Below, one piece after another: positions 54,123-61,409 of a DNA stretch of 64,000 bases (position 1 is its first letter; every line of letters begins with the position of its first letter). The translations under genes were made by a program, and so were the position numbers. This DNA is from a virus (taxonomy: Duplodnaviria; Caudoviricetes): the IMG/VR virus record IMGVR_UViG_3300001598_000033, positions 64,001-128,000 of that record; one strand, given 5' to 3'. A model generated the notes under the pieces. The model did no database searches. It had not been told where the DNA came from and worked only from the letters and a program-made list of their open reading frames with translations.

Positions 54123-57100
54123 TTAGTATAACTCAACAGCATTCTTAAACTTAACGTTATTTAAACGAGGAACTACGTTCTTTATTACTTTAAAGTTAGT
54201 GCTTGGATACTTAACATTTAAATATACATTTTGTCTAAATAAGTCAGTAGTTAATGGTGTATATAAGTAATCACTTTCCTTATAATTTCTTATAATTTCA
54301 CCTGTATAATAATCAGTATCTGAAACATCTTCTATGGTATCAACCAAATAACCTTCTGTTGTAATATAACGGTTATTTGAAGTTCCATTTACTGTTGTGT
54401 AATTTTCTGATCTTAATAAACTATTTATTTTAGCTACAACATTTGCAGGTATTTCTGTTTCTTCATTTATTTCCATAGCACTACCATCTTCTTCAGTAGT
54501 TGTTATATACTTTTTATCAGATGTATATAAGTATGCTCTAGGATTGCTATATGTTACATCAATATAATTTACATCATCATATATTGCAGTTTCATTTGCA
54601 TTAAATACATTATATAATTCTGTATTTTCATTTAATGTATTTGTTCTCATACCATTAGAGGCATCTTTAAATCCTTCATGGTCGCCATTTACAAATAAAT
54701 GTATTAATATATCTTTATTAAAAGTATTATTTAAATAATAATATCCACATGTTCTGGAGAATTCAATTTCCAAAATTTTACCTACTTGGTTGGTAATTAA
54801 ATTGCTTCTAATCCTTAATTTAGATCTATCTTCATAATTTGGTATGTACGCAGAACCATTAACTAATGCATCATTTGCAATAACTGTGTCATATTGCCCT
54901 GAAGCATTTACTACACATACCCTGCACTTAATACCATTATATGATTCATCTTTTGTATTATCAGGAGCTAACCTAAACCCTAATTGTATATCAACAAACC
55001 CGTTAGCATCAAAGAAATCCTTTAATTCTTGTGTTAACAAATAACGGCATTTCATTTTGATCTTTATAGGCGCTATAAACATCTTTGTGTTAATATCCGA
55101 ATAATCCTTTTCTGCGTCAGTGCTTTGTAATACTTTGTTTTTATTAGTATTTTCAATTATATTTGTCCAATCTGTATATAAATCACCAGTTACTAATGAA
55201 AATCTTAAAGCATCCTTATCACCGTACTTACCAACATATAATCCATCATATTCAGATGGAACTTCATTTCTTATCTTATCATATGTAAAATTAATAAAGT
55301 TTTCTGTATCGATACTTGGTAATCTTGAAGGGTCTAAGAATCCATCATCTGTAAAGTATTTTTCAAATGGTACGCCTAGTGGAATATAAACATCTTTATA
55401 TTCGGATTTCCAATTTTCAGTACTTAATGTCTTTTCATTTAATATTAACTGTGTTTCCAATGTACTTGTAAAACCACATAAATCTGAAATTAAATAATCT
55501 AATCTCTTAACTATATTGGTATGGAAATATTCCACATCAAAATTTTCTAAATGTAAAGAATCATCTCCGCAGAAACAAGCATTTAAAGCATCAAATAATT
55601 TTTTATGTACATTAGAAGTCTTATCTTTTATATTATATTTTAATATATTAAAATTATAATTAAAATTCATATAAATTGGGTGTCTATGATGGAAAGTTAA
55701 ACTCGGAACGCATTTATCAATTAAATCACCCCAAACACCACTATATTTTCTTACAATAGTACCATTTTCATCTTTTTCAGCTCTATATCCTTTTATTTCT
55801 GTATTTAAGATATAATTCTTTCTATAGTATTCATTTCTTAATTGAGTTTGGTAAGTACTATCACCTTCAGCATAATTGTATACTAATTGGTTATTAGTTC
55901 TTTGGTACTCTGTATTATTATTATCTGAAATGAATTGCCTTGTAGATGATTTTTCAGGCATAAAGCTAAACCAAATATGACCAGGCGCTTTAGGAAACTC
56001 ATCTTCACCACCCCACACAGAACTGTCATAAACATAAGGACTACGATTACAAGCATACTTATAATCCAACTTAGTGATTAAACGGTTAGCACTATTGTAT
56101 ACCTTTGGTGCGTTTTGTTGGATACTGTAACTTGATTCTTCATCAGCTCCTGTAAGTACTAAGTCACAACCAATAATTTGTGCATCTGCAAATATATTTT
56201 TAATATAGTCCGGTTGTGTATCCACACCACAAGGTAATTCAGGTAATTCTAACCCAGAAAATACATTTAATTCTATAGTTGTTGGATCTGATGCTGTTTC
56301 TTCTCTGTACTCAGCTTCTGTTTGTTTATGGTCATACATTTGGTCATAATTAGGTAAACTAAATATATACTTTTCAGAACTTGTATTTAACTCACCTTCA
56401 GAACCCTTAGTTTTTAGGATACTGATTTGCACAACAGATCCGAATGGAACACCCTCACCTAACCCCGCATATTTAAAGTATATTCTAGGTGTGCCCATTT
56501 CAATATCATCAATACGAATGAATTTATGATTAACTGCACCAGTATATGTAGAATCCTTTTCAAAGAAATAATCAGAAACTTTATTATATGGTATTTTTTC
56601 TTGATAATTGCCATAACTGTCGTAATAAGATACATATACATTAATACCATCATTCTCAACATTAGTATATGGAATATCAATATAATTTCTTACAGTTGTT
56701 TGCCCATTAACAGTAATTGAACCTATAGTAACTTCTAATGAACTAGGATCTATACTATAATCAATTATTTCACCTTCCTTTACAGGAATTTCAATATTCC
56801 TATTGCGTTCAAACATTGCATGAAGTTCTTTAAGATTATCAACATAAAATCCATCTTGAGTCTTAGCTGTTTTAATATACCCGTTATTTTCATTATACTC
56901 TAATTCTAATGTTCTTTTATCGTATTCTACATCACCAACTTTAAATTTACCTGTATCAATAACAATGCCATTTTCTTTAGAGTTATGTAAATCATTATTT
57001 TCTATAAAAACATAAGTATTATCGTTGGATGTAAATTTTGTATACTTAGGAATTGTAATTTTGCCATAACCAATCATATTATATCCTAACTTAATAGTTA

Positions 57101-57377
57101 GTTTATATTGATATGAGGTTGCATGTTGAGGTTCGTATCCTAATACTCTCGCATCCTGTAAGATATTATTACGTTTTGTGGCATAAGGTAGTAATGTTTC
57201 ATTTATATTCATCGCTGTATTAGTATTCATAGATGATACTAAATAAGACATTACAGCCGATAATTGTGATGTATTAGAACCATCAGATACATCGAATCCA
57301 GCATTTGAAAAAAGATTTCTGGATTCTTCGAACAAATCATCAAAACTAAATGGAACTGTTTGTGTAGTTTTAGACAT
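54123..57377 (-). CDS. gp6: Baseplate wedge protein
   Basis: FD..GSN, NE..L..A..R..I...A..LGY.P, G.DEES..SI...AP..Y...NRL.T..DY, VWGGE. Confidence 0.9.
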   Translation of the reverse strand: MSKTTQTVPFSFDDLFEESRNLFSNAGFDVSDGSNTSQLSAVMSYLVSSMNTNTAMNINETLLPYATKRNNILQDARVLGYEPQHATSYQYKLTIKLGYNMIGYGKITIPKYTKFTSNDNTYVFIENNDLHNSKENGIVIDTGKFKVGDVEYDKRTLELEYNENNGYIKTAKTQDGFYVDNLKELHAMFERNRNIEIPVKEGEIIDYSIDPSSLEVTIGSITVNGQTTVRNYIDIPYTNVENDGINVYVSYYDSYGNYQEKIPYNKVSDYFFEKDSTYTGAVNHKFIRIDDIEMGTPRIYFKYAGLGEGVPFGSVVQISILKTKGSEGELNTSSEKYIFSLPNYDQMYDHKQTEAEYREETASDPTTIELNVFSGLELPELPCGVDTQPDYIKNIFADAQIIGCDLVLTGADEESSYSIQQNAPKVYNSANRLITKLDYKYACNRSPYVYDSSVWGGEDEFPKAPGHIWFSFMPEKSSTRQFISDNNNTEYQRTNNQLVYNYAEGDSTYQTQLRNEYYRKNYILNTEIKGYRAEKDENGTIVRKYSGVWGDLIDKCVPSLTFHHRHPIYMNFNYNFNILKYNIKDKTSNVHKKLFDALNACFCGDDSLHLENFDVEYFHTNIVKRLDYLISDLCGFTSTLETQLILNEKTLSTENWKSEYKDVYIPLGVPFEKYFTDDGFLDPSRLPSIDTENFINFTYDKIRNEVPSEYDGLYVGKYGDKDALRFSLVTGDLYTDWTNIIENTNKNKVLQSTDAEKDYSDINTKMFIAPIKIKMKCRYLLTQELKDFFDANGFVDIQLGFRLAPDNTKDESYNGIKCRVCVVNASGQYDTVIANDALVNGSAYIPNYEDRSKLRIRSNLITNQVGKILEIEFSRTCGYYYLNNTFNKDILIHLFVNGDHEGFKDASNGMRTNTLNENTELYNVFNANETAIYDDVNYIDVTYSNPRAYLYTSDKKYITTTEEDGSAMEINEETEIPANVVAKINSLLRSENYTTVNGTSNNRYITTEGYLVDTIEDVSDTDYYTGEIIRNYKESDYLYTPLTTDLFRQNVYLNVKYPSTNFKVIKNVVPRLNNVKFKNAVELY

Positions 57378-57380
57378 TCT

Positions 57381-57746
57381 TTACTCCAATAATGTTATAG
57401 ATACAGAACCATTCATTCCGGTATCTTTAAAGCGATATTTTATATTTGCTACTAATTTATTTTCTTTATTTTCTATAATATCTACATCATTAAAATCTAT
57501 ACGTGTTTCCCAAGCTACTAATGCTTCTCTAACAATTCGTTTTAATAATGTATGTGTAATATCATCATTTGGCGAAAATGGTATTTGCATAATTCTAGAC
57601 CCAAATGTTGGTCTACCAGGCATTTTACCTTTATGAGTTAATAGTATATTAGTTATTGAATTTTTTATAGCACTTTCATCGAACACGGTGGTGTTGGGTT
57701 TCACAAAATCTTCATATAACTTATCAAAACTTGAAAATGTAGACAT
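57381..57746 (-). CDS. gp25: Baseplate wedge / sheath initiator
   Basis: AIKNSI.NIL.T..G..P..P.FGS, WE.RI. Confidence 0.9.
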   Translation of the reverse strand: MSTFSSFDKLYEDFVKPNTTVFDESAIKNSITNILLTHKGKMPGRPTFGSRIMQIPFSPNDDITHTLLKRIVREALVAWETRIDFNDVDIIENKENKLVANIKYRFKDTGMNGSVSITLLE

Positions 57747-57772
57747 TTTTATTCCTATAGGTTTTTATTTAA

Positions 57773-57784
57773 TATTTATAAATA
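57773..57784. promoter_or_regulatory. Overlapping divergent late promoters
   Basis: Palindrome TATTTATAAATA between gp25 and gp13. Confidence 0.7.
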
Positions 57785-57809
57785 ATATAAAAATATTTTA
57801 GGATATAAA

Positions 57810-58541
57810 ATGGTTAAAAAAGTTATTGATACTGAATTAAAGTTAATTGCATACATAAGATCCCAATTAGGTGCGCCAATAATTGATATTGAAGTGAGTG
57901 ATGAACAAATCTCTGAGATTATAAGTGATGTAGTACAGGAATTTACTGAAATAGCATATGGGTCATTAGAAGGAACTGTATGTGTAGATTTAAGGGGTAA
58001 AGGTGAATACCAAATGCCTAAGAATGTTACTAATATAATTAAAGTATCAAGAGGCAACGTATCCAACATATCGAATTTCAGTGCTAACTACGGTTCTAAT
58101 TATGTTCCAGACCTTTGGTCTCAGCAATTTTTCACAGCTTCGTTAGGTGGAGATATATTACCTAATGTAGCTCAGTTGAGTAACACTAGGGCAATGCTTG
58201 AAAAATACTTTGGAGATGATATTTACTTTAACTGGAATCCACATAAGAAGGTGTTACAGGTATTTGAACCATTTAAAGGTAGAGCTGTGATACATTTTGT
58301 TTATGAGTACTATCCTGATGAAGAGGATATGATTTATGATCAAATGTGGGTGAAGAAAATGTGTATAGCGCGTACAAAATTTCTTTGGGGTTCTATTGTA
58401 GGTAAGTATTCTGCTAATCTTGTTGGTGGGGCTACAATTAACTACTCAGATCTAAAGTCAGAAGCTCAAACTGAAATAGATAACCTTAAGGAAGAATTAA
58501 AGGATCGTTGGGAAGATCCATGCCCTGTATTAATTTCGTAA
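57810..58541 (+). CDS. gp13: Neck protein
   Basis: YI...LGAP.I.IEV..EQI, WVK....A..K..WG....KY...L.GG..IN. Confidence 0.9.
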   Translation: MVKKVIDTELKLIAYIRSQLGAPIIDIEVSDEQISEIISDVVQEFTEIAYGSLEGTVCVDLRGKGEYQMPKNVTNIIKVSRGNVSNISNFSANYGSNYVPDLWSQQFFTASLGGDILPNVAQLSNTRAMLEKYFGDDIYFNWNPHKKVLQVFEPFKGRAVIHFVYEYYPDEEDMIYDQMWVKKMCIARTKFLWGSIVGKYSANLVGGATINYSDLKSEAQTEIDNLKEELKDRWEDPCPVLIS

Positions 58542-58556
58542 TTTAGTGGGATTAAA

Positions 58557-59345
58557 ATGACTATATTATATAATTATAAACATTATTTCGTTTATTTAAT
58601 ATGGAATAAAATAAACAGAAAAATGTATATTGGATATAAATCAACAGATAAAGATCCGTATGATGTTATTGGTAAGTCATACTTTTCAAGTTCATCCAAT
58701 AAAGAATTTATGAAAGATCAAAAAAATAACCCAAATAATTATAGATATAAAGTTTTAGCTGATTTCAAAACATCGGAAGAAGCTTTAGAACTTGAAATAA
58801 GTTTACATGAAAAGTACAACGTTGATATTAATGATAGGTTTTATAATCTTTCTAAACAGAGGAAAAATGGTTTCACAACAACAAACTATAAAGGATTGTG
58901 TGGTCCAGAAAATGGAATGTTTGGAAGGAAACGAACAGAAGAGGAAAAGAAATTAATATCAGAAAAAACAAAAGAGGGTATGAGGAGAAACGGCATAACA
59001 AAAGAAAAAATGTGTGAAACATCTAAAGCTTTTTGGGAAACTCATGAGCATCTTAAAAGTATTTATGCTGAAAGAGCATCAAAACAATTTAAAGAGTTAT
59101 GGACTGATCAAGAATTTATTGATAAAATGAAAAACAGAACTGTGAAGCCATATGCCAGGACAAGTGAGCAAAAGGAATTTATCACCAATCTGAGAAAAGA
59201 AGAAGCAAAGAATGGAACAGGAGCTTATAAAAAATTAACTTGTCCCCATTGTGGAAAAATAACAAATACTGGAAATTACGCACAGTACCACGGTGACAAG
59301 TGTAAAAAAAGACATATATGTCCAGCACCTGTATTAATAGGTTAA
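58557..59345 (+). mobile_element. GIY-YIG (Seg-like) homing endonuclease, intact
   Basis: VYLI.N..N...YIG, YFSSS, E..LH, FYN, NGMFG, CPHC Zn motif. Confidence 0.88.
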
Positions 59346-59361
59346 TTAACGGATTAACACT

Positions 59362-59682
59362 ATGAAAAACATAACGAAGGAAAATATTGACTTTAGAGAG
59401 CGACAAATTCGTTTGAATAATGAAAACGAAAAAGAAGACTCTATGCGCTACATGACATGGTTTGCATTAGTTGGTATGTTGATTTATCCTTCGTTATTGA
59501 TAGCATGTGATATATTTCATTTAAATGAGGCAATCACCCATTTAACTTCAATCGCTGAAATATATTTTATTTCTGTTAGTGGGTTAGTATCAGTATATTT
59601 TGGTTCTAATGCATATTCTAAAAAGAGATCTAACCAACATCAATCAAACTATAATTCATATAATTCAGATTCAGAAAATTAA
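59362..59682 (+). CDS. Two-TM membrane protein, possible holin
   Basis: Two hydrophobic helices, YFGS motif, polar tail. Confidence 0.5.
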   Translation: MKNITKENIDFRERQIRLNNENEKEDSMRYMTWFALVGMLIYPSLLIACDIFHLNEAITHLTSIAEIYFISVSGLVSVYFGSNAYSKKRSNQHQSNYNSYNSDSEN

Positions 59683-59799
59683 TTATATTAATATTATTAT
59701 ATAAAATACTATAAATAAAAATTGATTTTTAGATTGAAATATTATATAATTGATTCGTAATAATTTTTTTTTTGCTAGATCAAGAGATAGGAGAGAAAA

Positions 59800-59928
59800 A
59801 TGGCTTGTAATGGTAATTTCGTGGCTAAATATGACTGGCAGATTAACAAAGCAAAAACATTTATAGATCGTAAAAAGGCTTTTAAAAAGGGTTATAAGAA
59901 GCATAAAGGAAAAAATGATTTTTTATAA
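59800..59928 (+). CDS. 42-aa basic protein, not in ORF track
   Basis: AGGAG RBS; MACNGNFVAKYDWQINKAKTFIDRKKAFKKGYKKHKGKNDFL. Confidence 0.7.
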   Translation: MACNGNFVAKYDWQINKAKTFIDRKKAFKKGYKKHKGKNDFL

Positions 59929-59954
59929 AAAAAATAAAAAAAATAAAAAAAATT

Positions 59955-60024
59955 GAAAAAAAAGCTTGACTTTTGGATTACTTTATTATATAATATATTC
60001 ATAAGAGATAGGAAATAAGAGGTA
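59955..60024 (+). promoter_or_regulatory. Diverged copy of early promoter unit
   Basis: TTGACT(59966)-17-TATAAT(59989), AAGAGGTA. Confidence 0.75.
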
Positions 60025-60237: not shown

Positions 60238-60477
60238 ATGAGAATGAAATTAAAAGATGCTGTAAAATTTATAAAACACAATGGTTGTTCTTGTAACGCA
60301 AGTGATATAGAACATTTTGCAAGAATTGTTTTACGAGATGGTTTGACTGATGAACTAACAAGAGAAATTCTTGAAATCTATGGTAATAACGAAGTTCTAG
60401 ATGTTAATGTAATTGTTGAACTTGAAGGTCACGAACTTATGAACTACATTATTTACGATTTTTACTTGGATATTTAA
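60238..60477 (+). CDS. Hypothetical protein, tandem paralog
   Basis: MKLKDAV.F..HN.C.C...D..HFA..VL.DG...FYLDI. Confidence 0.7.
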   Translation: MRMKLKDAVKFIKHNGCSCNASDIEHFARIVLRDGLTDELTREILEIYGNNEVLDVNVIVELEGHELMNYIIYDFYLDI

Positions 60478-60487
60478 GGAAAAGAAA

Positions 60488-60736
60488 ATGAAATTGAAGG
60501 ATGCTGTTAGATTCGTTTGTCATAATGATTGCCCGTGCTATGATTACGATACCCAACATTTTGCAAAAGTTGTTTTGCAAGATGGTTCAACAGAAGAAAT
60601 GTTCTTATATACAACAAAGGAAATACTTAATAAGTACGGCGATGCAAACGTTTTAAAGGTGAATGTAAGCGTTACCATTGAAGGTGATAATGAACTTAAC
60701 GATTATATAGTTTATGAATTTTATTTAGATATTTAA
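60488..60736 (+). CDS. Hypothetical protein, tandem paralog
   Basis: Same motifs as 60238-60477. Confidence 0.7.
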   Translation: MKLKDAVRFVCHNDCPCYDYDTQHFAKVVLQDGSTEEMFLYTTKEILNKYGDANVLKVNVSVTIEGDNELNDYIVYEFYLDI

Positions 60737-60775: not shown

Positions 60776-60979
60776 ATGGAAATGTTTAAAGAAGAATATT
60801 TTGGTAAAGATAAAGAAAACCGTAAAGCATATAGAGGTGCTAAATCCGTATCTAAATCTTGCAGGAGTCACGGAACTTGTGACTGGTGTAAAGCTAACAG
60901 ACTTTACTCTATTAATAAAAATATTGAAAAAACTGAAAGCGAAATGAAAATGACTAAAATGGGGTTAATGAATGAGTAA
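60776..60979 (+). CDS. Small basic Cys/His protein
   Basis: RK.YRG.K.V..SCR.HG.C.WC..NR. Confidence 0.65.
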   Translation: MEMFKEEYFGKDKENRKAYRGAKSVSKSCRSHGTCDWCKANRLYSINKNIEKTESEMKMTKMGLMNE

Positions 60980-61409
60980 AGACGAAAGATATATCAAAAT
61001 ATCCAAAGAAATTGCTTCTTGGAGTAAAGACCCTAGCACTAAAGTTGGCGCTATCATTGTAGGTGATAAAGGTCAAATTGTATCACAAGGATATAACGGT
61101 TTTCCAAGAGGATTTGAAGACACTATTGAACGTTATTCTAACAGGCCTATAAAATACAAATACATCATTCACGCTGAAGCTAATGCTATTTACAATGCTT
61201 TATATAATGGTGCAAATGTAGAAGGTTGTACTATATACGTTCACGGATTACCACCTTGTTTAGAATGTGCTAAAGCAATAGTTCAATCCGGAATTAAGAG
61301 AGTTGTTACTGATAGTAAGCCAGATGAAAGATGGTTAAAATCCAATCAAGATGCTATGGATATTTTTAATGAAGCAAAAGTTGAATTTGAGTATTTGGAT
61401 TGTGAATAA
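60972..61409 (+). CDS. cd: dCMP deaminase
   Basis: SKDPSTKVGA, GYNG, HAEANA, PCLEC. Confidence 0.93.
   Translation: MSKDERYIKISKEIASWSKDPSTKVGAIIVGDKGQIVSQGYNGFPRGFEDTIERYSNRPIKYKYIIHAEANAIYNALYNGANVEGCTIYVHGLPPCLECAKAIVQSGIKRVVTDSKPDERWLKSNQDAMDIFNEAKVEFEYLDCE

Follow-up and report, generated by a model that had tools for sequence, protein, structure and literature searches.

How a free-standing homing endonuclease gene came to lie directly behind gp13 and to end in nearly the same peptide as gp13 is the question raised by one locus of an uncultured T4-like phage, whose 154-kb contig included the stretch of 64,000 nucleotides analyzed here (hereafter, the window). The answer that we consider likely is that a homing-endonuclease cassette, needing no splicing, has settled in the 3' end of the essential neck gene gp13. 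The original prediction had placed an endonuclease in the end of gp13, with a replacement end brought along and with the endonuclease reading into the displaced original end, and it was supported in kind.

The gp13 locus and its duplicated gene end

The gp13 gene (Table 1) matched phrog_211 (head-tail adaptor Ad2 = gp13; E 6.5e-26), and its product was full-length relative to homologs and was encoded by one ORF without splicing. The late-promoter-like motif upstream of gp13 showed no enrichment over chance in the AT-rich window, so that it points only weakly to a promoter; in the search of the window, neither the gap behind gp13 nor the gap behind the endonuclease gene contained the motif. Homologs of the small membrane ORF were found directly after gp13 or at most 360 bases away in the contigs L008/L024, L018, L020, L021, L025, and L029, and the gp13 relatives with the membrane ORF directly downstream had 50-77% gp13 identity. 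No gp13 relative above 77% identity was present in the viral, metagenome, and genome contigs scanned, and blastn of the phage collection gave matches of only 67-69%, inside gp13.

Table 1. Coordinates of the features at the gp13 locus in the window (peptides are written up to the stop codon)
Feature	Position	Strand	Remarks
T4-type late-promoter-like motif TATAAATA	57777..57784	+	26 bases 5' of gp13 start
gp13 (neck protein / head-tail adaptor Ad2)	57810..58541	+	243 aa, complete, end ...RWEDPCPVLIS
Attached (putative replacement) gp13 end, last 9 codons plus stop	58512..58541	+	direct repeat with 59316-59345
Spacer, gp13 stop to endonuclease start (15 bases)	58542..58556	+	ends GGATTAA(A), like the spacer before the downstream ORF
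Endonuclease proper (predicted)	58557..59315	+	GIY-YIG-like N-terminal domain, helical linker modules, zinc-finger-like module; no stop of its own
Putatively displaced gp13 end as endonuclease C-terminus, ICPAPVLIG	59316..59345	+	direct repeat with 58512-58541
Spacer after displaced end	59346..59361	+	holds translation start region of downstream ORF
Small membrane ORF, 106 aa	59362..59682	+	usual downstream neighbor of gp13

The wider surroundings of gp13 contained (i) a baseplate wedge gp6-like gene (1084 aa) plus a gp25-like gene (Pfam GPW_gp25, E 9e-16) on the minus strand at 54123-57746, head to head with gp13, with portal and head-completion genes upstream of gp13 instead in Vibrio relatives; (ii) two tandem paralogous small ORFs at 60238-60477 and 60488-60736 (79 and 82 aa, respectively), with near-identical ends ...Y(D/E)FYLDI; and (iii) an ORF at 60972-61409 with HAE...PCxxC motifs, which looks like a dCMP/cytidine deaminase gene.

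The whole endonuclease ORF (58557-59345) encoded 262 aa, ended in ...KKRHICPAPVLIG, and was composed of a GIY-YIG-like domain at residues ~9-100 and a CxxC...HxxxC zinc-finger-like module at residues 229-249, the latter being conserved among homologs. It matched the profile phrog_314 (homing endonuclease; E 2e-23), while Pfam GIY-YIG PF01541 scored 20.2 bits, under the 22.6 cut-off (E 7e-4), and the homologs gave equally weak GIY-YIG or SegE matches. Residues 9-100 of the AlphaFold model had a pLDDT of ~90, and the top three Foldseek hits (probability 0.98-1.00; TM 0.62-0.63 on the target) were all to the I-TevI catalytic domain, with UvrC GIY-YIG next in rank, but the E-values were weak (0.014-0.05). 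Y13, Y24, G26, and E80 were invariant and N97 nearly so in 13 homologs; no Arg was conserved at the I-TevI spacing, the candidate position being occupied by K, R, or H. NUMOD3 scored above its cut-off in the homologs P0107, P0105, and L026 and gave no match at E 0.01 in the window endonuclease itself, and the family profile matched the I-TevI DNA-binding domain 1i3j (E 0.0036). The phrog and fold matches point to a Seg-like GIY-YIG homing endonuclease, and the Pfam score and the missing canonical Arg leave its activity a prediction.

Comparison of the two ORF ends gave the 18/25 identical bases that had been claimed (58517-58541 versus 59321-59345), in the same codon phase and with both TAA stops aligned, the two 25-base copies encoding ...DPCPVLIS in gp13 and ...CPAPVLIG in the endonuclease. 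The similarity did not end with the stops but covered part of each spacer as well, as far as a common GGATTAA before each next ATG (gapped local alignment of ~40 columns), and the two copies shared 11 identical bases in a row, indicating light respelling. The last 7 codons of the copy at the endonuclease end were clearly gp13-like and the first two had diverged; a longer duplication upstream of the CCA codon was unsupported (6/18 bases identical). A match of 18/25 bases was expected 0.43 times anywhere in 64 kb on both strands and was therefore not rare; this one was the sole such match in the window, and the chance of its falling on the terminus of the neighboring ORF, with the stops in register, was ~3e-6 per position. 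The local alignment score was attained by 0.7% of random 100-base segments. Across the 154-kb genome, 6 of the 68,265 ORF pairs had at least five of the last eight residues in common, and a genome-wide scan gave no second case of this kind among adjacent ORF ends.

Presence, absence, and end types of gp13 alleles

Public contigs were compared over 57600-59900, and the endonuclease-bearing contigs came from four studies. Two contigs of run X1 skipped the endonuclease and bridged gp13 to the membrane ORF: (i) in the first, 58520 was joined to 59361 via 21 letters encoding APILVG, giving the end ...DPAPILVG, and the APILVG ending was independently present in protein P0005; and (ii) in the second, 58549 was joined to 59351 via 6 letters, retaining the attached-type gp13 end, its stop, and the first 8 spacer bases. 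Together with the relatives that had the membrane ORF right after gp13, these two junctions established the endonuclease as an insertion, as had been claimed. The second contig may represent a natural resistant allele, the source lineage of the substitute end, or a product of endonuclease loss; its origin by simple deletion between the GGATTAA repeats is disfavored, since such a deletion would not give its spacer. The original prediction, which had named an endonuclease-free ...PCPVLIS end as the outcome that would speak against it, was supported by the first of these contigs and not by the second, which came near to that outcome. A lower contig depth of the endonuclease than of gp13 in X1 and X2, considered as a hint that the cassette-bearing form is the rarer allele, was left unused, contig depth being no valid measure, and an X2 spacer rebuilt from loose ends was set aside as too uncertain.

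The nine-residue tail of the endonuclease was foreign to the enzyme and was a gp13 end: it was lacking in homologs, was disordered in the AlphaFold model (residues 253-262, pLDDT <50), and equaled the ends of real gp13 alleles. None of the remote homologs L010, L015, and L026 carried the PAPVLIG end that was to speak against this origin if found at unrelated loci; these homologs, which lie at such loci, came to their stop within 2-7 residues of the last Cys of the CxxC...HxxxC module, and so right behind the zinc finger. Among the endonucleases of the set at least 85% identical, P0058 and P0084 ended in QDLDPVLIG and QDLCPVLIG, respectively, P0059 and P0083 (85-90% identical) stopped at KNKK, and P0089 had the same remnant read in another frame. 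The gp13 proteins at least 90% identical displayed the ends ...DPAPVLIG (P0070), ...DPCPVLIG (five sequences), ...DPAPVLIS, ...DPAPILIS, and ...DPAPALVM; the tail of the window endonuclease was the P0070 ending, and P0070 thus supplied the ...WEDPAPVLIG end expected of an original gp13.

The sister-allele tail QDLCPVLIG differed from EDPCPVLIG by two single-base changes (one per codon), which would put the junction right behind Trp234, at a distance of 9 codons from the stop. Insertion inside the gp13 end was supported, but the predicted distance of about 7 codons is probably too short: both this tail and the phage phiKT1024 (see below) favored 9, as judged from these alignments.

Variable sites among the gp13 relatives at least 90% identical defined two allele groups, of which the window gp13 was a mosaic: it was group I-like at residues 1-131, 181-203, and 238 and group II-like at residues 144-169, 225, and 243, as expected from co-conversion at homing. 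The attached end was lightly changed, and its variants Cys238 and Ser243 and its spacer were also present as natural alleles. Among the gp13 proteins at least 90% identical, C or A at residue 238 was combined with S or G at residue 243 in each of the four possible ways, which fits recombination between the two copies.

Related cassettes in Vibrio phages and the polarity of the two copies

A tblastn search with the endonuclease gave one full-length homolog (35.6% identity over residues 4-262), in the cultured Vibrio phage phiKT1024 (OM249648.1; L031:1747-3208), where it was annotated as 'hypothetical protein' and located directly downstream of gp13. The phiKT1024 gp13 ended in ...NKFSDPAPIDIA and stopped at TGA; between it and the endonuclease, which ended in ...EKCKFKSDPAPIDVA with the tail SDPAPIDVA, lay a spacer of 31 bases containing TATAAATA and GGAG. 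When the gp13 ends of phages phiTY18, pv27, and Va1, all without the endonuclease there, and of Vibrio phage VB_VaC_SRILMA (SRILMA) were used for comparison, the phiKT1024 tail had 28-29/30 identical bases, while the gp13-attached end of phiKT1024 had only 19-21/30; moreover, the 300 bases after the tail were 300/300 identical to phiTY18. The gp13 body was almost the same in phiKT1024 and phiTY18 (686/693 identical). At base 696 the agreement broke off: 14 differences fell within the final 34 bases and struck almost every remaining codon (the last 12 codons respelled), mostly at synonymous positions. The polarity in phiKT1024 was demonstrated by this comparison with three endonuclease-free relatives, the tail being native and the attached end a substitute, and the site was polymorphic, phiKT1024 carrying the endonuclease and phiTY18, pv27, and Va1 lacking it. 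The layout proposed for the window was matched exactly, the endonuclease being a homolog and the gp13 codon the corresponding one: the attached end of the window (58512..58541) was the counterpart of the respelled phiKT1024 gp13 end, and the tail at 59316..59345 was that of SDPAPIDVA.

A mirror-image cassette was found at the gp13 5' end of SRILMA (PP083314.1; L002:2030-3720), and the coordinates were the same in TDDLMA. In SRILMA, the native start and gp13 codons 1-37 (106/111 bases identical to Va1) were fused before a related endonuclease, with the region upstream of the fusion 198/207 identical, while the real gp13 had respelled attached codons 1-37 (74/111) and was 581/618 identical in the rest, which established the polarity in this phage as well. 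The last codons of the SRILMA endonuclease contained the ribosome-binding site and overlapped the GTG with which the real gp13 begins, and the fusion ORF had been deposited as a second 'head-tail adaptor Ad2'. Related GIY-YIG/NUMOD3 endonucleases were also observed immediately upstream and ~150 bases downstream of gp13 in the metagenome contigs L026 (442-3103), L028, and L030 from another lineage, in which no duplicated gene end was seen by eye.

In the lineage of the window itself, the native copy was assigned by analogy to these phages, with support at the protein level only (P0070), and since the attached-type end also occurred without the endonuclease (second X1 contig, with the same 8 bases after the stop), this assignment is provisional. 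The endonuclease might instead have landed in the spacer behind a native ...VLIS gp13, its tail being foreign and derived from an earlier host; a module, once formed, is transferred as a whole, and either of its copies may then be foreign to the recipient. The ...VLIS alleles P0003, P0072, and P0073 were on contigs that matched none of the endonuclease-bearing contigs in length. This reverse polarity appears unlikely to us: the homologous phiKT1024 cassette has the opposite one, judged against three empty relatives; the tail followed the local gp13 type (...IDVA in phiKT1024 and ...VLIG, the type of the local clade, in the window), where it was contiguous with the local downstream ORF; and the mosaic structure of the window gp13 is what co-conversion at homing predicts.

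It is far less probable that the tail is functional, its gp13 C-terminal peptide letting the endonuclease bind a gp13 partner in the neck/portal or be regulated through it. Such a role would suit the in-frame read-through kept in two distant lineages and the conserved gp13 C-terminus, 40 of the 54 relatives fitting P-x-P-h-x-h-X (a P..hhG end had been named as typical of T4-type gp13, but a final G was present in only 17/54). A common frame, however, follows simply from a fixed junction, and the tail was lost by early stop or frameshift in the close alleles P0059, P0083, and P0089, was disordered in the model, and showed decay of the first remnant codons. As for chance or compositional similarity between two AT-rich ORF ends, the expected frequency of an 18/25 match might allow it, but the position, phase, and aligned stops, a tail absent from homologs and identical to real gp13 allele ends, and the phiKT1024 parallel leave it scarcely credible.

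Proposed mechanism and comparison with known systems

In the preferred reading, that of a cassette in the gp13 3' end, the mobile unit would be composed of the substitute last ~9 gp13 codons plus stop, a short spacer, and a stop-less Seg-like GIY-YIG ORF, and it would sit ~9 codons before the original gp13 stop. Full-length gp13 would still be made from the substitute end, while the endonuclease ORF would keep its frame through the displaced original end and borrow the old stop; the old end, the following spacer, and the membrane ORF would make up the right-hand homology arm. In co-infection, gp13 alleles that lack the endonuclease would be cut by the enzyme at the intact junction or close to it, and repair off the cassette-bearing genome would copy the cassette. 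The changed end together with the interruption may shield the carrier from cutting and may also reduce deletion between the two repeats, and the 9-residue tail would be a passive passenger that the enzyme does not need. The intron-free nature of this design, which had also been claimed, agreed with the gp13 stop preceding the endonuclease ORF and with the finding of no group I or II intron match in 57500-60000 (Rfam, E up to 1).

Several known systems share parts of this design. The MobA plus gene 60 bypass cassette of T4 reportedly splits its gene and depends on ribosomal bypassing; it resembles the gp13 cassette in having a free-standing endonuclease, in bringing along additional sequence by which an essential gene stays functional despite the interruption, and in disrupting the target site, but in gp13 a plain duplicate gene end would suffice. 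In fractured genes, split inteins flank a free-standing endonuclease gene and protein trans-splicing is needed. They likewise place an endonuclease within an essential phage gene without an intron, whereas gp13 was a single uninterrupted ORF with no intein motifs. Synthetic 'home-and-rescue' gene drives combine a nuclease in an essential gene with a recoded, uncuttable rescue of the disrupted end; the likeness is in design only, the gp13 cassette being natural, protein-guided, and in a phage.

The free-standing Seg endonucleases of T4 and their 'intronless homing' (PMC2988022) were similar to the gp13 case in enzyme architecture, in having a phage host, and in adjoining an essential gene that is conserved; they likewise spread through double-strand-break repair and co-conversion and are present in some relatives but absent from others. 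The T4 seg genes, however, are intergenic, with cut sites hundreds of bases away, and that review mentions no gene-end duplication (0 occurrences of 'duplicat'; PMC2988022), whereas the insertion in gp13 would lie inside coding sequence and be mended by a carried copy.

The closest likeness in layout was to the mORF 'gene hybrids' of fungal mitochondria, namely Allomyces macrogynus atp6; Glomus atp6, atp9, cox2, and nad3; Rhizopus atp9; and Mortierella cox2 (PMC3630166). Both have an endonuclease ORF near the gene 3' end without splicing. The divergent substitute C-terminus of mORFs, with the native C-terminus left downstream and matching close relatives, had its counterpart in phiKT1024 and, at the protein level (P0070), a putative one in the window. 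An endonuclease ORF between two copies of a gene end, by which mORFs are recognized, was present in the window, in phiKT1024, and, at the 5' end, in SRILMA. The gp13 cassettes differed from the mORF hybrids in four respects: (i) the host was a phage structural gene and the enzyme a Seg-like GIY-YIG protein with a zinc finger; (ii) the ORF was fused in frame to the displaced end, using its stop, whereas mORFs are in phase with the upstream gene; (iii) gp13 could also be invaded at its 5' end, by a related enzyme in the mirror-image arrangement; and (iv) the duplicated piece comprised only ~9 codons. A literature search, with subscription journals outside its reach, found no phage publication of this design.

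A wider reading, which we hold as tentative and somewhat doubtful, spans phages with gp13 proteins only 50% identical: one Seg-like lineage may have specialized on gp13 via 3' stop-less and 5' start-less cassettes, and their gain, co-conversion, and loss by repeat recombination may diversify the gp13 C-terminus.

For annotation, SRILMA with its second 'head-tail adaptor' serves as a warning that an endonuclease fusion can pass as a structural gene. With the insertion point marked by the displaced end, the sequence itself shows where the likely recognition region lies, and the same design in cultured phages (phiKT1024/phiTY18, nearly identical around the site, and SRILMA/Va1) makes homing, resistance, and loss directly testable. 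A free-standing endonuclease can, in this way, enter an essential phage coding sequence without an intron, an intein, or a gene split, by means of a spare end and a borrowed stop; if the specialization on gp13 were true, its cassettes would borrow the stop, the start, and the promoter of the target itself.
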